A stretch of 61,717 bases of DNA, counting the filler, from Diploschistes diacapsis (Eukaryota), in the NCBI GenBank assembly GCA_023645945.1. It is 6 parts of 6 records of this genome, joined end to end, with 100 filler letters (N's around TTAATTAATTAA, not from the genome) between each part and the next. Parts side by side here need not be neighbours in the genome. Positions count along the whole stretch, not along the records: positions 48,731 to 55,174 come from JALAIB010001393.1; 5 more parts are not named here. One strand, 5' to 3'. The notes beneath the pieces were generated by a model that was not told where the DNA came from, searched no databases, and was given only the letters and a program-made list of their open reading frames with translations. Positions within the stretch are counted from its first letter, which is position 1, and each line of letters starts with the position of its first letter. The position numbers were made by a program, and so were the translations under genes. Positions 28,969 to 58,349 of this stretch are shown piece after piece.

Positions 28969-29068
28969 NNNNNNNNNNNNNNNNNNNNNNNNNNNNNNNN
29001 NNNNNNNNNNNNTTAATTAATTAANNNNNNNNNNNNNNNNNNNNNNNNNNNNNNNNNNNNNNNNNNNN
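28969..29068. other. Artificial contig spacer N44-TTAATTAATTAA-N44
   Basis: Exactly 100 nt with stop codons in all six frames. Occurs five times in the window. Confidence 0.98.
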
Positions 29069-29189
<121 letters not shown>

Positions 29190-32100
29190 TAATGTATGTA
29201 TATTTCTTGCATTCAAGTGTTAGCATATCACGTGCAGTAAACCATTTCTCACTCACTCACTCGCTCGCCCACCTCACTCCTCTTAACTACAACTTCTGTA
29301 CTATACTAGTACTAATTTCGTCAAATTTTCATTCTCATGCTTGCTTCCATGGCTATAGGAAGGGCATTGGTCGGTGGTAGTCCAGCTCTATCGCAGACTC
29401 GAGCTGATAAATAACTTAGAGGCTGACCAGTCTATACTACGTACGTAAGTACAATCAAGTGCCCTTGCTCATGCATCTCAAACTATTGTCTATTCTGCAT
29501 TGCGGAGTCACTTACTCATTCATGCATTATCATTACTCGCCTCCTTCGGAAGTATATCCTACTGCGTGGCATTCTCCGCATCATCGGAAACCTGCCGCCT
29601 CCATCACTGTCCCATTTGCCACTCATCCCATTTGCATTGACCATGACCGTCGTGTCGCTGCAGCCACAGTTAGCGTATCTACAACAACGATCAAACAACG
29701 AACACTGGACGGATTAACCGAGGTACAAAGGGGATAGGAGATCCTAACCGCATCTTACCGCAACCCCTTCTTTTCTATATCTACCTACTACTAGTACCCC
29801 CTTAGCTGTTTGTCACAGGCAGGGGCTGATGCCATATTGGACCCGCGACACAGAGCAACCTACCCATGTTTTTAGACTTGTTTATCCCCTCATAGCGTGG
29901 CTGTAATGATTTTGTTTTCCTGGCAACTTCTTCGGGCCAAAACTCGGTGTTTCGAACCGGTTTCTGCTCAGACCTGGCAATCCGCATCACCGCCCATTCC
30001 TATTGATTGATCGACTCAAGCTTGATCTTGATACTGCGTTCACAAATGAGAATATGTCTCGAACCGCCACAGTTGAAAATATACGCGTAATGGCTAGTTT
30101 TCGTGAAAGCCGTCTTTATACTTTGAGAGAGGTGGGGAAGCAGTTCAGGACAGACGGGGGTCATTGTGGGTCAACAGAACACATTCAATAGGAACAATAA
30201 GAACTTATAAGACCTGGGGTCACTAGGGCAGGCAGTCAAGTCCCTCCTAGCGCTTCTTCTTGACGGAGCACTCCCGGCTACGATAAGCTTCATAGAAAAC
30301 GGCTCAACTTGCAATCCCCATGTCACTACTGTACCCGTTTGAAAGACAAAGCAGGCAACCATGACTACCTTGTTGACTTATAGGTGCTATCCCACTGCAT
30401 GCATACAATGGGTCTGTTGTCAGACGAGAGTAGCCCCGTGTCTGCACAATACTAGCCAATTCCTTCAGAACTCGGAAGATAATTGTACTGAGTTGGGCTT
30501 CCGGCCGTAACTGGAGAGCTGGTAATAGCAGCAGAAAGACCTCTCCACCAGGGCCATTGACAGAATCCTCCAGCTGTCTCGTCACCAAATGGAAGCGCTT
30601 AGGAGTTCGGTGAGCTGGATAACAATGGACGGTGCACTCACCAACGTTCCCATGTCTGTTCAATTCTGTGTGCTCTGGGTTCCCAATCGATTCTTCGGTG
30701 CCTGGTGCAACATTGCAGATACTGGCGAGGGCTTGAATATGACGGTAGTAGACGTCGCGGAAACCCGAAGACTCCAAAAATCCTGATGGAGCAAGATTCC
30801 CTCAAACAAGGCAGTGATTTCCACGATAGCCTGATGGATCATAAGTCCCTTCGGCACCGAGCATTGCGTACGTTTTGCGCCATGTATCGTCAAATACGGG
30901 ATGTACTAAGTAGGCTATAATCTGTGCTCAAGAGCCTCGTAACTAGGCTCGGAAACCAGGCACAGGGCAGGTGCTACTCGGCGCATAGTATGATCGGGCC
31001 TCTATCTCCATTCCGACCTGATTTCTTTTTTTTTTTTAAAAAAAGGGGGCGCGAAGTCAACTCATTCGACCCATTTGTGGCGAAGCTGACCCGGATAGCC
31101 GAGGGGGTGCTTGGGCCCCAAGAAGGGCGAAGAGAAGTAGGTTGAGGGCGGGTGAGCTAGTCATCCAACCCAATCCAGTACAGCTGAGTCGAGCGTTATC
31201 GACAATCCATTGTAGGTGTGGCAGGAGTCGAAGGACTCAGGAGCATCAGGCAGGACATCCTTCGTCGGAGATATTACCCGGTAGGATGAAGACGAGACAT
31301 CTAAAGAGTCAAGACAGCCGAAGACAGCCCGTCCCGGCAAATGATAAGCTTGGAGAGGACTAGTAGCAAAGTTTAGTAGATAGCTATGTGACGAACAAGT
31401 AATTTGTACCCGAGGTGAATCATGCTTGATTCTGGAAGGATGCATGATATGTTGCTGATTGTTTCATAAAACCTTGCGCTACAATAAAACAATCATAACC
31501 CGAAGTCGCAGTCCAGCTGCACTTAAAATAGTAGCGGATAATTACCAGCAATCTGGCGCATAACTTAGAAATTTTGATGAACAGCATCGGATGGTCCTGT
31601 CGGAGGTTACAAGTTTTTTAAGCTTTTCTTGCTCTTTACGGAAAAGCCAAATCACCAGAATCTAGATAAAGAGTACAGTAGAGGGAAGTACGGCATCCTG
31701 GCAGCAGATCTGATTAGCCATCCAAGAACCTACGATTCAGCTTATCGAGTTGCTACAATTCTGGTACATCATGATGGGTACTTTGTAGTACGTTACCGCT
31801 GGACGTTTGCAACAACCATGGAAAAAAGAAGGCGTCGCTTCGTTGCACTACATGGCGGCTCTTGCTGATCTATGGGCGGCAATGCTCTTCTAATAAGAGT
31901 TTTCGAACATCCTATGCTTCCGATATAGCACCTGTTCGTCGGGAACTATCGTAGCGTGACCGCTTACGTCGTGCGACCGTAGTCATCACCCACCATACAT
32001 CATTACAGCTGTGTTGTAGATACAAGAATTGCAGTCACAAGCAAGTCGTTAAGCCATCGGTGACCTGGTCCCTTTCCTCACTCCAATCCTTTCTCCTTGC

Positions 32101-34404: not shown

Positions 34405-34718
34405 CTTCAAATCCCCCTGCTCGCCAATGCCCAGAAGTGACTAGGTTCTCCTCAAGCAGCGTGCGATGGCTAAGTGAAGGATAAAGGCAGATATGAGAGG
34501 AGGTAGAGGCGAACCCAAGGCTTGTCCGCTGGGTCCCGCTGGGTCCCGTTTACCTGCTCCGCAAACCCTTCATACAAAACACCATAGGGCTGATAGTAAA
34601 TCTACGTACACGCTAAGTTAGGTCTTATATAAATTGATATACGCATTTCTTCAAGTTATTTATATGTCATTTGGTGGCACATATAAGCTCATGTTACGTG
34701 ATAATATTTGATACTATG

Positions 34719-34790
34719 TGTCGGAATATAAACATGAACTGCTGCTTGCTAAGTGGTGCGCATCTTTTGGCCTAGTGGTTTAGTTCAACA
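34719..34790 (+). mobile_element. 72-bp solo LTR (TG...CA) with 5-bp TSD CTATG
   Basis: 70/72 identical to 48905-48976. CTATG at both 34714-34718 and 34791-34795. Confidence 0.9.
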
Positions 34791-35086
34791 CTATGTATCT
34801 AAATATCATTTTCCTCTAAGTATTTTACAGTTCTTTTTTAAATTTAATATGGTAATTTTAAGATTTTATAGGTCGTCAAATAGTCTGTTAAGGTTTTGAA
34901 TTTTTTTGGTCTTAGCCTTGACAGTTTCTTGCCCCGTCGCTTGTCCACCGTAATTAAACTCCTATTTCACGACTGCGACTTGCCTCAGTATCTCGGACTT
35001 TAGTAGCGCGTATGGGCTTCGTGTAACACCCGAGTGTGCGCACCGGGGTACAGGTCCCCCTGCTGCCACAGCTACGCACCTACATA

Positions 35087-35526: not shown

Positions 35527-35626
35527 NNNNNNNNNNNNNNNNNNNNNNNNNNNNNNNNNNNNNNNNNNNNTTAATTAATTAANNNNNNNNNNNNNNNNNN
35601 NNNNNNNNNNNNNNNNNNNNNNNNNN
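35527..35626. other. Artificial contig spacer
   Basis: N44-TTAATTAATTAA-N44. Confidence 0.98.
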
Positions 35627-42083: not shown

Positions 42084-42183
42084 NNNNNNNNNNNNNNNNN
42101 NNNNNNNNNNNNNNNNNNNNNNNNNNNTTAATTAATTAANNNNNNNNNNNNNNNNNNNNNNNNNNNNNNNNNNNNNNNNNNNN
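42084..42183. other. Artificial contig spacer
   Basis: N44-TTAATTAATTAA-N44. Confidence 0.98.
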
Positions 42184-48262: not shown

Positions 48263-48630
48263 ATGCCATCTTCAAAATCAAAGTCCCCAATCTCTATCTC
48301 CTCGTTCGCCGCCCACCAACTGTCTCTTCTCTCCTCCGAACTCGCCGCCTCTACCGCCTCTACCGCCCTCCTCCTCAGCACCTCCTCCCCCACCGCCCTC
48401 TCCCGCGCTGGCCTCGCCCTGACGAATCTCTCTCTTTCCTCCATTCGCACCGGCCTCGGTGGAAAAACCGTCCTGGAACTAGACCCCGACTCCGCCATCA
48501 CCGCGCCAAAGTCCAAGGCTGGAGACGAGGATGGAGCGGATCACAATGCGGGGGCAACTGGTAGTGGAGGTATCAGAGTGGGGGATGTGGTGAGAGTGGC
48601 GCCGCAGCCGAAGGGGAGCGAGAGAAAGGG
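48263..48630 (+). CDS. HCS1: N-terminus of Hcs1/IGHMBP2-like SF1 helicase, truncated by contig end
   Basis: FAAHQLSLLSSEL...LSRAGLALTNL...RTGLGGKTVLEL...IRVGDVV. Confidence 0.75.
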
Positions 48631-48730
48631 NNNNNNNNNNNNNNNNNNNNNNNNNNNNNNNNNNNNNNNNNNNNTTAATTAATTAANNNNNNNNNNNNNN
48701 NNNNNNNNNNNNNNNNNNNNNNNNNNNNNN
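48631..48730. other. Artificial contig spacer
   Basis: N44-TTAATTAATTAA-N44. Confidence 0.98.
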
Positions 48731-48976
48731 TTTTGGCGTAGTGGTTTAGTTCAACAGGTTATGAGCCCGGGTAGCGCACTGCGCTGCATCCCCACCCGTT
48801 TAGTTCAGAGGTCTGAGGTCGAGTCCCGCTCACGGCAGATTTTGATCTGGCTGGAAAGAACACAGGTAAACAGTAAGAACCGCAGAGCCATGTTTACGGG
48901 GGTGTGTCGGAATATAAACATGAACTGCTGCTTGCTAAGAGGTGCGCATCTTTTGGCGTAGTGGTTTAGTTCAACA
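48731..48976 (+). mobile_element. Miniature non-autonomous copia-type LTR retrotransposon (TRIM-like); 5' LTR clipped by contig start
   Basis: Last 26 nt of the 5' LTR (48731-48756), PBS GGTTATGAGCCCGG at 48757, 148-bp internal region, G-rich PPT ending 48904 and full 3' LTR 48905-48976. Confidence 0.88.
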
Positions 48977-49000
48977 CTGGGTGCCAGCCCTACCAGCCCT

Positions 49001-49442
49001 ACCAGGATTCAACCTTTGAACCAACAAACGTTTAGAATGTTCCAAATCGAATAATTTATATATTTAAAATAATATATATTAAATTTATAATATTTCGTAA
49101 AGAAAATCAAGAATAAAAAACGTTTTTTAATAATCGTAAAAAATATAAATTGAATAAACGAATCGAATTAAAAGATCGTTTTATATTTAATATAAATAAA
49201 ATTTTTAAAATAATAATTCGGGTTAAATCGAATCGAATAATTTCGAAACGATATATAACGCGTAAAAAACGTTATCGCGTTTTTAAAATCGAGAAAGATA
49301 AAAAGAAAGAAAATAGATTCGATTTAGATCGATTAGATTCTAATTACGACGAATAAATTATATTTAAAAACCGTAGAATGTTAATAATCATGATTTGAGA
49401 TGACCGGAATCTGGGTGTGGCCGGAATCCCCGTGAAACACGT
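49001..49442 (+). mobile_element. Heavily AT-biased relic of the 3' end of a Fot1/pogo-type DNA transposon with right TIR
   Basis: Very AT-rich. Residual peptide KRIELKDRFIFN...acidic tail resembles a pogo transposase C-terminus. TIR 49401-49442 has an internal direct repeat (CCGGAATC x2) and ends ACGT-TA. Confidence 0.65.
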
Positions 49443-49637
49443 TATATTAAAAACGCGTTGATATAATGGGGGCGTGAGTTATTGACTTATGTTAGTCACT
49501 GACTAGTGGAATACGTTACTTCCAACAGTTAAGAAGATCTTCGATAATGTTCTATTAGGTTCTAGAGTAGTCTATAACCTCCTAGAACCTTTAAAATCCT
49601 ATTAAAAGCTTATTAGTCAGTCAGACTAACCTATCTA

Positions 49638-49846
49638 ACGTCTTTCCCCAGGAAACGGAACACCCCACGAAGCGGAACACAATCCCTGCACCTTCGTATA
49701 ATGTAGTTGAAAACAGAGTTAGTTTCGTACAAATAATTTTATGTGCGGTTGTGGGGCTCAAAAGCTCGCTTAAAACTATCTAGCGTAATTACATTATAAT
49801 GTAGTGTTCCGCTTCGTGGGGTGTTCCGTTTCCTGGGGAAAGACGT
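49638..49846. mobile_element. 209-bp pogo/Fot1-type MITE with perfect 43-bp TIRs and TA TSD
   Basis: 49638-49680 is the exact reverse complement of 49804-49846. TA flanks both sides. The TIR starts ACGT and contains CGGAACAC twice. Confidence 0.93.
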
Positions 49847-50846
49847 TATGTTAATACTCTGACATTGATTGTATGTTAATTGTTTGATTAATCGATAATG
49901 TTTTCGTTGATTAATATAATAATCGTTGAACAAGAGGCGAAAGCAGATGCAATATCATTATTCAATTCAGTCAAGCAACCAAAAGCATCAAAGATTTCGA
50001 ATCCAGTTCAGTCAAATCAATATCTCTAACTGATTTAGTCTTGCGCTTTGCTTAGGAATCAATACCGATGGATAAAGCACAGCATCTGACAGCCTGTGTA
50101 CTGCTATACTTGGTATGGATTTTAGGGCTTGATTTCTGTTTGGTTGTCGTTGTACGCGGCGTGGCTGCCTAACTTCTCTAAATCTTCTGAACAATCAGGC
50201 ACTCGTACCCCGGCTATTCAATCGTTGAACTGATCATAATTGGTAGCCCTTTCATTCTCGTTCATTTTCTGTACCCATTTTGGCTCATGATACTCCTCCA
50301 GAGTACATAGTAGCGTATCTATTATCTTAGCAATTGAAAGTATCAACACTTCTTGCGTCCTGATTGGTATGCCATTGCAACCAGAAGCTCGGATGATGGA
50401 TTGCTCTTCCTTTCCCGGAAAGAGAGGGGATACTGAACGCTACATTTAGCATCTCACCTACTCCTCTTTACTCTGTCTATCCGTAGCAGCCCGTGAGACT
50501 AGTAATAGCAGATATTATTAGTACATGAATCAAAGTAACCGTTCCCCCTCTTAGCTACTAGTAGCCAACCGGCCCGTGACCGCCCAGTCAGACGCCTGTG
50601 AGAAATCAACCCATTTATCGACATCCTCATCCATTTCGCCATTTCCACTCTTGTTGTTTGCGCGATGGACCATCACCCACAAGATTATCATTCACTACGA
50701 GTCTCTCTACATCAGTGTTTTCCGTCTTTTTAGCCAGCGCTTCCTTTCTTGAGTCGTGCCAAATTTCACTTGTTGTCTTTCACCCAACTTCCAACCATTA
50801 CGGTATTCTACGACTGCGTCCCACCACGTGAGGATACTCCAAAAGA

Positions 50847-52784
50847 ATGGCTAGCACGAATTTCAGAGATGCCATTGTGCGAACCGATGTTAAATGTGCG
50901 CATAATGAAGAGCACGATTACGAAACCCTGGATGATTCTGCGCTGGACGCCTCTAGTCCGAACAGGCCTTCAAGTGTAGGAATGCGAAGGGGATCCTCTT
51001 TTTTAAAGACTACTCCAACCTTCGCATCAGACGCGCCTTGGCATGACTTTGCAGTGAATGCGCAATCCGGTGCCGTGGAGCCCAACAACTCAAGCCAAAT
51101 GTTCGGTCGACCTCGGGCGCAAAACGTCCCTGGTCTCTCAGCACCGCATACCAATCTCTTCTCCCAGCATCCGTCCAATTGGCAGACGAATGGTATGCCC
51201 GAAATTTACTCAGCTGCGACTGGTCTCGACAATCTTGCTGATTTCGATGCCAACCCTCCGGCCTCTTTTGCGCCGGCCAGCCATCTCACCTCGTCAGGTC
51301 CAGCTTTCGATGGTCTTCAACTTAGTCCAACAGACGCTTACCAGCCACTCTCTGGCCTGCCCGCGTCGCCACAGTCTTGCAAAGAAGGCTGGATCTCGTG
51401 CTCCTCGTCGGATGGAGTGGATTACCGTGGGTTAGCGCAGCAAATGAGGACACAATCTCCATCCTTAGTTGCAAATACACATCTACTGCGACGCGATGGT
51501 ATCCGTAAGAAGAATGCCCGTTTTGAAATTCCCGCAGAGCGAAATCTCCGGACGATCGATCAGCTCATCAATCAGACGAGTGATGAGCAAGAATTGAAGG
51601 AGCTCAAGCAACAGAAGCGTTTATTACGCAACAGACAAGCAGCGTAAGATTAATCCGTGCGTTGACACCCACTCGACTGAACACTGCACAGACTCGATTC
51701 AAGGCAGCGAAAAAAGCAGCATACCGAACGTCTCGAGGAGGAAAAAAAGCACTACACGGCAGTCATCAGTGAGCTCGAAGACGCTTTGAACGATCTTAAA
51801 ATGCAGGAAGCCGAATGGACGACAACGAAAGAGAGTTGGGTCTCTCAGCAGCGACAGTATCAACAATACGTCGATGGTTTGATTTTGGAAAAGGAAGAGC
51901 TGGTCCGACGACATACTCTTGAAACTGGGGACCTGCGTAAAAAGAACGCTATACTGTCTGAGCAACTACAACGCATGGAAGGCGTTGGCATGTCAAACGC
52001 GCCAAGCTCTACAGGCTTCTCAGGCGAGTTCTGCGATTTCGACAATCTTACCATGAACAGTTGGGACGAGTTCCCAGTCAACAACGAATTCTCCATGGAA
52101 AGTGAGCCTCATGCTCAGAACAACGCAGGCACTACCCCTAAGAATGACGTCCACAACCTGAACCTGGGTGACGATAAGGCCGTTGCTTCAGGTTTCCTCT
52201 TAATGCTTTTACTGTGTGGTGCTTGGGTAGCTTCGCGAAGCTCAACGTCTTCTTCGCCCTTCCTTCCAGCCATTCCGGACGATATGCGAGCCGCTTCAGC
52301 AACCGTTTTGGACAATATTTACAAAGGCTCTGGTGTTACATTGGATGGCGTTACGGATGGCAACCCAATCGTGACCCCAGCGCGAAGAAGTTTCGTTGTG
52401 AATGGTCCACAAACCGCGCTCAGTGCTTTCGAACTTGCCAGTTTTACTCACACATCGCTGGAATCACTTCATCAGCGCTTAACAGCACCAACTGAGCAGC
52501 AGCAGCGCGAGCAAGCCTTCTCCTTGACGCCAACCCAATATAACGAGCTAGCTCCTCAAAATGCGTACCCGGATTCAAACTTCTTCGGGAGTCCTGATGC
52601 TAAAAATGTCGGTCAAGTTCTGGGTGCCGCCGATACCGCTTGTGAAGGAAATATGGGAGATACTTATGCAAAATCTCTTCTGAAAGGCAGAGTATCGACC
52701 CAGGTACTCAAGGACTTTGCTCGTATGGTTGCTGAAAGCCGTCCTCAACCTTCCGCGCCATGGAAGTTTGAACAGCTTGGTTGA
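50847..52784 (+). CDS. bZIP transcription factor with downstream hydrophobic segment; intron 51644-51691
   Basis: KRLLRNRQAA|LDSRQRKKQHTERLE basic region, a coiled coil, then VASGFLLMLLLCGAWVAS. Confidence 0.85.
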
Positions 52785-54717: not shown

Positions 54718-54915
54718 CCTGGTCGCTATAAGAAAATGTGGCGCTAGAGACCTGGATATTGTGTCTGTCGTTGTGACATAGGTCTACTAGCATGTACTAC
54801 ACGAGCATGTCTGCTTGCCAGTGGGATAAATTAGGTCTGGCATCTCTGATTGCCCCATAAAGCGACTCAGCCCCACTGTTAAGCGCCGCGGTAAACAGAA
54901 CGCTTACAACACATA

Positions 54916-55174
54916 ACGTGTTTCCCCAGGAAACGGGTCACCCCAGGAAGCGGGTTACTCATTATAATATAAATGCGCTAGATAGTTTTAAGCGAGCTTT
55001 TAAACCCCACAACCACACATAAAATTATTTGTACCAAATTAAATCTTTTTAATTATATTACCCCACTTTTATTTTTACGCGGCCGTTTTTCGGCCTTTTT
55101 TTAATTCGTTCAAATATTTCTCCATAATATAAATCTATCCTATTATTACATACGAAACTAATATATTTATAAGG
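54916..55174. mobile_element. End of a pogo-type element related to the 49638-49846 MITE, truncated at contig end
   Basis: TA then ACGTGTTTCCCCAGGAAACGG...; about 140 bp aligns to the reverse complement of the MITE's right half, with many G>A/C>T changes. Confidence 0.8.
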
Positions 55175-55274
55175 NNNNNNNNNNNNNNNNNNNNNNNNNN
55201 NNNNNNNNNNNNNNNNNNTTAATTAATTAANNNNNNNNNNNNNNNNNNNNNNNNNNNNNNNNNNNNNNNNNNNN
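55175..55274. other. Artificial contig spacer
   Basis: N44-TTAATTAATTAA-N44. Confidence 0.98.
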
Positions 55275-56064: not shown

Positions 56065-58349
56065 CTACTCGGCTTCCTCTGCTCCAAAACTGCGCTGCTC
56101 CAGAGCCGCATCCATCATCTTTCTGCCATTAATAATGCCCGTCGTGCAAATCAGAATCTTCCTGTTCGAGTCTCCTTTCTCCAGGAATCTTAGCGCCGCA
56201 ATCTCTGTTCTCGTGATACCGCCCAGAAACATGACAACGACCGTCTTCTTAGCTCCTGTTCCACTTAGAATAGCCCGAGCTTTCGTGGCCGCTTCCTCGC
56301 CCTTCTGTACTTTGTTGAAGGTCTGCCCTTTGGTTGCCTTCAATGCGTCTTCAAAGCCTTGCCATCCGTGTGCCGCGGTGCTGATACCTCCAGCATTAGT
56401 ACTGGGCTGAGACGAAGACTTTGCAAAAGACAACAGATATTGTTTCTGCAAGACACACTGTACCAAACGCACACTCAGGGGCGCATACCCGCTGTAAACG
56501 TAAGCAATGTCATCTGGGTCCTGTTCATTGACTTCATCAACAATCAGTCGGAGAGCTTTGCGGAGATAGTTATAGTTTGTTTTCGTAGGTGCTGATGCCT
56601 GCCCGCTGCCTGTAGGGAGGGCGAATACATTTCCAGATGCCCTTGACACTAATAGCTGCATTTTCTCCAACGCATCCAATGTAAGTACGTGCTGGTAGCC
56701 ATAAGCTTGCAGAATCAGCGTCCGAAAGTTATCCAAATCCTTCGGTCGAAGGCCGCCAGAAACACAAGACTCCAAGCAGAGGAGCCGAAGAACTATAGGC
56801 AGAGGAGTATCTCGTGCTATGAGTTCCTCGATCGCGTCATGCTGTGAACTTGGGTCCGCCCCGGCAGCGAGATTCTGTTGAGCTTCTAGAATCCGCACGA
56901 ACGCTTCAGACCGAGTGTGCTTCATTATTTCCTCTGCCAGGCTGGTGTGTATTTTCAAGCTTTGCTGCTCCGCTTGATACCCCGGCAATTTGGCGACGAA
57001 TTCACGGAGCTCTGTAGTCGAGGTGGAATGTCGTGACTCGTAGTCGTTTGCCAGCCTCCGCGCTACCTTGTTCAAGGCCGGACCAACCACGGCAAAATTG
57101 GAATCTCGTAATTGGCTATACAACTTATCAGAGGAGTCAAGCACGATTTTTCTTTTCGTGCCCTGAGCAGCATTACTCTGTTGCCCCGGAGCCGGTCCCA
57201 CAATTGAGGTGTCGATTTCGGCCTGATTGTCTTTGATACCGTACATCTCATCGATCAGACCCTCGTAGGTAAGTTGGGTGAGGAGCACGCTTCCGAAATC
57301 TACTTCCCGGTCAATAATGACCAGGCTCTCTATGCTAGCGCTAGGCATCATCCCAATTCCAGAAGTACTGGCACGCTCTTCGGCACTTGCTTCCGACCGC
57401 ATTCTCAGCAGAAGCTCCATTAATCTTTGGGCATTATCGCCCTTTCCAATGATTCTAGGAAATAGCCCGTATTCATTCTGTAGGAGCATCAATGCTCTAG
57501 CTGCCAGAAAGATGCATGTTGGGATTTTTTGCTGTCTCTGTGTTAGACATAGGGACAACGCGACGAACGGACGCCATACTAGGTAGAGATCTGAGAAGCC
57601 ATCCTCGAGCTCTAGGGACAGCAGGTCATGATCTAGTGGTAGGAAGTATAGTGGAAACTCGTCCACGACAAGGTCACCGAGGACCCCGGCATCCTCAAAT
57701 ATCTTGTTCAAGACGAGGGTTTTCCGTGGGGTGCTAAACACGGAGAACTCATGCTCAATCTCGCCATTCTGCTGCAACCGTTTGATCTGTTCTGAGGTTC
57801 ATGTGAGCATGTAATGATGTCGCTTCAACTATGGCGAGCAAGTACAGCGCTATAGACCATGCTTAATTCAATTCTAATCTTGGGATTAAGACTGACTAGG
57901 AAGAGTAGAGCATTGGTCTAACTAGTCTACTTTTGCCTCCCTATCATCAATACAACGATAATAAAAGTACTTGCAGAACAGAGAATATGTGAGAGTGCGA
58001 TGACAATGAAAGCTTACCTGCAATAGCTAGCGGGCGATCAGCGCCCTCGCCTCTTGTTAGGAAAACGACGTTTCGCTGAGAAGAGTCGACATTGTTGTTC
58101 TCCAAAAAGAAGACCTTGTCGACCCCATACTGCTGTAGAGTAGAGAACTTGACAAAGAGACCCGTGGGACCCGCAAGTGATTTATCAATAACAAGATTTT
58201 TCTTGCCTCGGACCTAGAGGGATGTAAGCTCCCATTCTCTTCTACAATATGACCCGTGTACCCTTACATACGCCTTCGAGCAGATCCAGGATGTCTTTTC
58301 GCGCCTTTTCTCTGACCCGCTCAGTATCGATTCCCGGGTGAGGTGCCAT
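56065..58349 (-). CDS. VPS33: Sec1/Munc18-family vacuolar sorting protein Vps33; 4 exons
   Basis: VRGKKNLVID, DLLSLEL, IIDREVD...LTQLTYEGLIDE, VYSGYAPLSVRLVQ, FLGGITRTEIAALRF. Confidence 0.93.

Follow-up and report, generated by a model that had tools for sequence, protein, structure and literature searches.

Evidence for a miniature, probably copia-dependent LTR retrotransposon in a lichen-forming ascomycete

Introduction

The described elements closest to the one reported here are the fungal Helenus TRIMs (Kojima 2024, PMC10886601). According to the portions of that article used here, these elements are ascribed to copia helpers, they have 5-bp TSDs, and the tRNA-iMet anticodon loop is their dominant primer type. 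The fungal hosts named in the same portions all belong to the Basidiomycota, namely to the Pucciniales and a few Agaricomycetes. In the accompanying consensus file the 12-mer ggttatgagccc occurs 48 times, at or near the start of the interior among the matches listed. The sequence ACGGGGGTG occurs three times in the file and closes the interior of a Puccinia Helenus in both matches listed (PMC10886601).

Very small elements of this kind have also been published from plants. In the sections of the respective articles used here, SMART FRetro129 consists of 85-bp LTRs and a 122-bp interior and is described from the grass family only (Gao 2012, PMC3281118). The TRIM CcaRetroS9 belongs to the same class and is smaller, with 52-bp LTRs and a total length of 233 bp (Gao 2016, PMC4717578).

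In the accounts available to us, Ty5-type elements carry TGTTG/CAACA tips and a PBS for an iMet half-tRNA. Ty5 and copia are elements of about 5 kb with LTRs of about 250-280 bp. For the lichen fungus Umbilicaria pustulata, the available part of an automated TE census lists one TRIM consensus, and TRIM classes appear in several ascomycete TE surveys, as far as these were accessible to us. The initial annotation of the locus studied here had left open whether its family was already described. The kind of element is known in fungi as Helenus or TRIM, whereas our literature search returned no detailed description of such a mini-element in a lichen fungus.

Results and discussion

The analysed DNA and its host

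The analysed DNA, referred to below as the window, is a stretch of 61,717 nt from the Diploschistes diacapsis assembly GCA_023645945.1. Its six parts are joined by five N44-TTAATTAATTAA-N44 linkers, which mark the joins between contigs at positions 28969-29068, 35527-35626, 42084-42183, 48631-48730 and 55175-55274. The joined parts shrink stepwise (6458, 6457, 6447 and 6444 bp; the last one ends with the window), which implies that parts adjacent in the window are not adjacent in the genome. Among the eukaryotic proteins encoded in the window are Sin3, CENP-L, MIF4G and a member of the Sec1 family. The latter, a Sec1/Vps33-like protein (56065-57777), shares 81% identity with a protein of Thelotrema lepadinum, and its further named matches come from Xylographa, Lambiella, Circinaria and Icmadophila. 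These matches place the host among the lichen-forming ascomycetes of the class Lecanoromycetes, close to Thelotrema. In agreement with a lichen-fungus host, the best-ranking public run is labelled as a lichen metagenome.

Structure of the mini-element

The mini-element starts at base 1 of a 6444-bp contig (48731-55174) of the fragmented assembly. Its first 26 nt (48731..48756, plus strand) are the end of the 5′ LTR and are identical at all 26 positions to the LTR end at 48951-48976; the shuffled window is expected to give 0.00 such matches. Since the contig begins at 48731, directly after a linker, the 5′ LTR is incomplete through truncation at the contig start and not through a deletion. The LTR remnant is followed on the plus strand by the 12-nt PBS GGTTATGAGCCC (48757-48768), the reverse complement of which, GGGCTCATAACC, includes the CAT anticodon. 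By itself this 12-mer is not rare, as at least one match with up to one mismatch was found in 27 of 100 shuffles. Its significance lies in its location immediately behind the LTR end and not in the 12-mer alone. The interior spans 148 bp (48757-48904, plus strand) and ends with ACGGGGGTG, a G-rich polypurine-type tract (PPT; 48896..48904, plus strand) that abuts the 3′ LTR. The 3′ LTR is complete. It comprises 72 bp (48905..48976, plus strand), reads TGTCGG...TTCAACA and closes with AGTTCAACA. A TATAAA box is located at 48913-48918 (LTR positions 9-14) and a T-run at 48951-48954; positions 48954-48964 hold an A-box-like motif. The remnant of the 5′ LTR carries an A-box-like motif, the consensus match TGGCGTAGTGG, at 48734-48744 on the plus strand. 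From the two LTRs and the interior (72 + 148 + 72) a full length of 292 bp is inferred. With TG..CA LTRs, a PBS that abuts the 5′ LTR and a PPT that abuts the 3′ LTR, the element is a genuine non-autonomous LTR element.

The element has no coding capacity apart from two ORFs, 66 and 38 aa long, that are put down to chance; gag and pol are absent and there is no room for them, which agrees with its earlier classification as a non-autonomous element without gag/pol. What the element retains are cis signals only: the 72-bp LTRs, the TATAAA box, the putative iMet half-tRNA PBS and the short G-rich PPT. The 66-codon ORF (48761-48961) opens at an ATG within the PBS and crosses the interior into the 3′ LTR. 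This ATG is complementary to the CAT anticodon; the ORF itself is probably a product of chance.

A hairpin with a 7-bp stem and a 3-nt loop (GUAGCGC-ACU-GCGCUGC; 48771..48787, plus strand) follows the PBS in both the predicted MFE fold and the centroid fold; a hairpin behind the PBS had also been noted in the initial annotation. The other features listed there, namely the 26/26 identity of the LTR ends, the PBS, the 148-bp interior, the tract that closes it and the 72-bp LTR, were likewise recovered at the positions given above. Over its full length, the interior has a predicted fold no better than that of its shuffles (z = -0.13). Among 27 non-redundant junction sequences, 26 from metagenomes and the window's own, a comparable hairpin beyond the PBS reached z < -1 in eight, with a mean z of -0.39, and it was therefore dropped as a candidate for a lineage-wide signal.

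A solo LTR shows integration

The family has a further member on another contig of the window, a solo LTR (34719-34790, plus strand) that is identical to the 3′ LTR at 70 of 72 positions. Its last 26 nt (34765-34790) match the 5′ LTR remnant with one mismatch. This solo LTR is bordered on the plus strand by a perfect duplication of the 5-bp sequence CTATG (34714-34718 and 34791-34795). The duplication fixes the LTR ends and shows that a real integration took place. If the LTR is delimited at 74 bp instead, no duplication results; 72 bp is therefore the correct length. The TSD of the solo LTR falls within the range of 4-6 bp expected of LTR retrotransposons. The 5′ flank of the copy at 48731 is absent from the assembly, and only the 3′ half of its expected TSD, CTGGG (48977..48981, plus strand), can be read. 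A blastn search of the element against the window returned nothing beyond the three LTR copies. The initial annotation had further described the element as recently active; this was based on the 26 nt of LTR overlap and is not maintained here.

Related copies in public runs

Contigs of four public runs (X1-X4) were matched to the region 48731-49330 at a likeness of at least 88%. Being metagenome contigs, they do not yield a copy number, and part of the variants possibly stem from different species in one sample; X2 is labelled as a single organism. The most complete match, record 9 of X2 (208 nt), aligns without gaps over 48731-48934 with 17 differences and takes in the LTR end, the PBS, the entire interior, the PPT and the LTR start. 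Record 2 of X1 covers 48787-48936; this contig, record 1 of X1 and records 10-12 of X2 take in large portions of the interior and the 3′ junction. Individual interior sites are covered by as many as four different contigs of one run. The occurrence of the same uninterrupted interior in diverged contigs of two runs, X1 and X2, indicates that the element represents a family and not a one-off deletion, the alternative against which the initial annotation had asked for it to be checked. In X1 a joint from 48950 to 48731 leads from the LTR body into the PBS. Loose ends with disagreeing upstream sequence at 48903 and 48905 in the same run correspond to the 5′ edge of the LTR at other insertion sites. 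In X3 a diverged LTR end lies upstream of the PBS, and in X4 no contig was matched to 48731-49330. Within the element 20 differences are listed, of which 16 read C>T or G>A when the window is taken as the reference; the other copies thus look more mutated than the window copy. A joint from 48974 to 48796, seen in one contig, suggests a variant without the PBS region.

Link to copia elements

The 20-mer AGTTCAACAGGTTATGAGCC, which spans the junction of LTR end and PBS (AGTTCAACA/GGTTATGAGCC), was found exactly in 43 distinct metagenome loci (44 stretches). Apart from this junction, the LTRs and interiors of the 43 loci are unrelated to the element and mostly also to one another; in a blastn search with the 292-bp model the junction alone matched, over 20-38 nt. 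Nine ORFs from eight of the 43 loci were translated and tested for domains. Copia domains (RVT_2, rve, gag_pre-integrase or copia-type gag) were detected in seven ORFs from six of the eight loci (L024, L043, L009, L002, L007 and L004), and the integrase precedes the reverse transcriptase where both occur. The translated ORFs of the other two loci, two in L040 and one in L025, contained no copia domain. The identity of LTR end and PBS with copia-coding loci shows that this junction typifies a widespread lineage of fungal copia elements and bears out the initial assignment of the element to the copia type.

Clean LTR pairs that start with TGTTG were delimited in five of these loci, with lengths of at least 102 (L007, at the locus edge), 142, 168, 185 and 185 bp, and perfect 5-bp TSDs were found in two of the four LTR pairs that could be checked. 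In the related copia loci the TG is preceded by GAGGGGGAG or GAGAGGGAG. The LTR of the element starts with TGTCG, in contrast to the TGTTG of the five clean related LTRs, and at 72 bp it is shorter than all of them. The description of the LTRs as unusually short stands within fungi, but not as a record, as the LTRs of CcaRetroS9 are shorter still. With the exception of recency and rarity, the initial interpretation has proved largely right. No autonomous element with the same LTR or interior was present among the 43 junction loci. The 3′ portion of the LTR (its last 22 nt) had no exact match in the prokaryote-genome collection and none in the viral collection. Neither the window nor the 43 loci yielded tRNA genes.

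Some of the junction loci show structures of their own. In L007 (1-1500), LTRs of at least 102 bp that lie about 1.3 kb apart enclose only a copia-type gag ORF, an arrangement similar to TR-GAG elements. In L004 (7000-8700), 168-bp LTRs with the same junction lie 1.66 kb apart and are flanked by a perfect AAGCT duplication. In L023 (6990-7510), and also in L005, L015 and L003, the PBS recurs several times in the same orientation together with about 85 nt preceding and about 25 nt following it; L023 and L005 each contain two exact-match copies 119 nt apart. These recurring units imply four or more GGTTATGAGCC sites in the leader. Tandem Repeats Finder made no call on this PBS-repeat leader.

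Comparison with described elements

The portions of the Helenus description used here (PMC10886601) show several similarities to the element. Both are protein-less TRIMs with solo LTRs and 5-bp TSDs, dependence on copia is inferred for both, and both interiors open with ggttatgagccc, the PBS of the element being the 12-mer with 48 occurrences in the consensus file of Helenus. The stretch after the PBS is similar to the GGTAGCGCA stretch of LTR-1_PGr and LTR-1_PSt, and the PPT ACGGGGGTG recurs unchanged at the interior ends of Helenus-5B_PCor and Helenus-5_PPol. An origin by internal deletion, visible in interior ends shared with a helper, has a precedent in LTR-1_PTrit and Copia-9_PGr. The differences concern the LTR, the size and the host. 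The LTRs of the Helenus elements, as described there, harbour a complete tRNA-like sequence that includes boxes A and B, whereas the element has a box-A-like motif only. Among the matches listed, Helenus LTR tips are mostly ...TTCAATA, ...TCTACA and ...CTGACA, and also ...TTTCAACA, compared with ...TTCAACA here. The Helenus elements measure 311-1263 bp and the present one 292 bp, and the fungal Helenus hosts are Basidiomycota, while the host here is a lichenised ascomycete (PMC10886601). The element is therefore closest to fungal Helenus but lacks the tRNA module that defines Helenus.

The second similarity is with SMART FRetro129, which, as far as its description was available (PMC3281118), also measures 292 bp, has very short LTRs with a TGT...ACA-type tip and a 5-bp TSD, carries a TATA box in its LTR, is non-coding and has a putative copia helper; a relationship at the sequence level is not expected. 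As elements of 292 and 233 bp (FRetro129 and CcaRetroS9) have been published, the size of the element is no record. With Ty5 and copia, in the accounts seen, the element shares the LTR end ...CAACA and the 5-bp TSD. Unlike these autonomous elements, it is gene-less and its 5′ tip is TGTCG.

A possible tRNA-like module

We examined the element for remains of a tRNA-like module. The box-A consensus, which we take to be TRGCNNAGTGG, is matched at 11 of 11 positions in all three LTR copies; the sole LTR difference in this motif affects an N position. Of the four box-A matches in the window, three are located in the LTRs, against 0.89 expected. For box B, the consensus of which we assume to be GGTTCGANNCC, 16 matches with up to one mismatch were found in the window against 13.2 expected, and none in the element, its LTR included. 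Within the interior, the LTR end recurs as a 10-nt internal repeat, GTTTAGTTCA, which is followed by the T-arm/acceptor-like GGTCGAGTCCCGCTCACGGCA and by TTTT. One may speculate that the segment 48799..48843 (plus strand) is a relic of a tRNA-like module; it bears what we take to be a resemblance to tRNA-His. ARAGORN predicted no tRNA in the element at its default, intron and pseudogene settings, and gave only inconsistent calls at thresholds lowered to 60-80%. Rfam had no match in 48600-49100, and its models detected no tRNA at E-values up to 10. A 9.5-bit Rfam match of 48731-48860 to a mycobacterial sRNA was rejected as a chance hit. Two LTR consensi of Helenus share the 11-mer TCGAGTCCCGC of this interior segment, in their box-B region, as far as the source was covered (PMC10886601).

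Proposed mode of propagation and alternatives

Taken together, we consider it highly probable that the element is a non-autonomous miniature LTR retrotransposon of the TRIM/SMART type, about 292 bp long and dependent on copia, which resides in a lichen-forming ascomycete. Its packaging, priming and integration can be modelled on the known replication scheme of copia and Ty5. Transcription driven by the TATAAA box of the LTR would produce an RNA that extends from the 5′ LTR to the 3′ LTR. This RNA would be packaged by the Gag of a Ty1/copia-type helper into its particles. Minus-strand synthesis would be primed by the 5′ half of tRNA-iMet, and plus-strand synthesis would start at the PPT. The integrase of the helper would then recognise the conserved ...AGTTCAACA end and generate 5-bp duplications. 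Recombination between the two LTRs could subsequently yield solo LTRs, for example the one at 34719-34790.

An alternative is that the element is a dead relic: a copia element shortened by internal deletion, which has spread, if at all, solely by segmental duplication and without mobilisation in trans. It is consistent with this that no helper was found among the 43 junction loci or in the prokaryote-genome and viral collections, that the window has a single LTR-interior-LTR copy, that many changes in the other copies are of the C>T and G>A types typical of repeat-induced mutation, and that the element resides in repeat-rich, AT-rich DNA. A relic is nevertheless unlikely, as diverged contigs from two runs contain exactly this 148-bp interior without interruption, together with the two LTR junctions, the solo LTR carries its own 5-bp TSD at an unrelated site, the LTR edges in X1 border different flanks, and the same design is that of a known type of mobile family. 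The same contigs bear on the possibility that the structure is an artefact of assembly, in which LTR fragments were collapsed or joined into a chimera where the contig ends. The fragmented assembly and the position of the element at base 1 of a short, 6444-bp contig could give rise to such a suspicion. However, a break inside a repeated LTR is the normal behaviour of a graph assembler at a repeat, the PBS and the PPT are placed exactly as an LTR element requires, and both junctions and the whole interior recur in independent Logan contigs of other runs, which makes an artefact hardly credible.

The remaining alternative concerns the promoter. The element could be a Helenus-like TRIMp3, in which a tRNA-derived Pol III promoter is split between the LTR, with TGGCGTAGTGG as box A, and the interior, with GGTCGAGTCCC as a box-B-like piece that is followed by an acceptor-like end and TTTT; the 5′ LTR and the interior would together form the transcription unit. 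Such a reading draws on the fit of the box-A consensus to all three LTR copies and, in the portions of the Helenus source used here, on the occurrence of TCGAGTCCCGC in the box-B regions of two LTR consensi, on a box-B-like piece in the interior of Helenus-2_PGr, and on the PBS, PPT and TSD that the element has in common with fungal Helenus. It conflicts with the failure of ARAGORN, at normal and pseudogene settings, and of Rfam, at E up to 10, to detect a tRNA, and with the lack of a box B within one mismatch in the element, whereas Helenus carries box B in the LTR. The TTTT runs in the LTR and the interior would moreover halt Pol III ahead of the copying of the R region, a related LTR end in an X3 contig (loose end at 48753) lacks the 14 nt that bear most of the box-A motif, and the LTR contains a TATAAA box. 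We thus regard a split Pol III promoter as very unlikely. If it did exist, it would explain why so short an LTR is sufficient, would extend TRIMp3 to lichen fungi and would make the element a stripped-down relative of Helenus in the Ascomycota.

On the preferred reading, that of a copia-dependent TRIM/SMART-like element, miniature LTR elements with a putative iMet half-tRNA PBS occur also in lichen-forming ascomycetes, while earlier detailed characterisation of such elements concerned rusts and a few mushrooms. The element adds a new example of an already described type of genomic parasite and is not a new type. With a 72-bp LTR and 292 bp in total, it lies below every Helenus described in the source portions used (at least 311 bp) and therefore offers a compact natural test case for the minimal cis signals that a copia-type integrase and reverse transcriptase need. 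Elements of this kind are missed by standard LTR finders, and short-read assemblies break in them, as at 48731. The exact 20-nt junction AGTTCAACA/GGTTATGAGCC, shared by many unrelated fungal copia families, can be used as a metagenome probe for the lineage.

Neighbouring sequence

Directly 3′ of the LTR, the stretch 48977-49044 is matched by seven X1 contigs, all of which differ from the window at 49007 and 49015, and X1 has loose ends at 48984 and 49044. The stretch is thus itself repeated in X1, and the mini-element lies in or beside another repeat. The adjoining region 49030-49630 is AT-rich and nearly all of its remaining C residues are in CpG, which looks like the result of repeat-induced point mutation. 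In X1, X2 and X3 the contigs that match 49050-49330 add up to a very high depth, and most of them differ from the window by A>G and T>C; the stretch here is a mutated version of a highly abundant repeat.

Further downstream, a perfect pair of 45-nt palindromic arms is located at 49636-49680 and 49804-49848. Together with inverted repeats of 91 and 43 nt about 5.1 kb apart, it brackets two ORFs (50847-51647 and 51786-52784), neither of which had a Pfam match at E-values up to 1; the repeats concern the regions 49636-49848 and 54911-55050. An unclassified DNA transposon with a size of about 5.4 kb may be present here. In another part of the window, the contig beginning at 29069 starts with a long ACT trinucleotide microsatellite (29069-29190).
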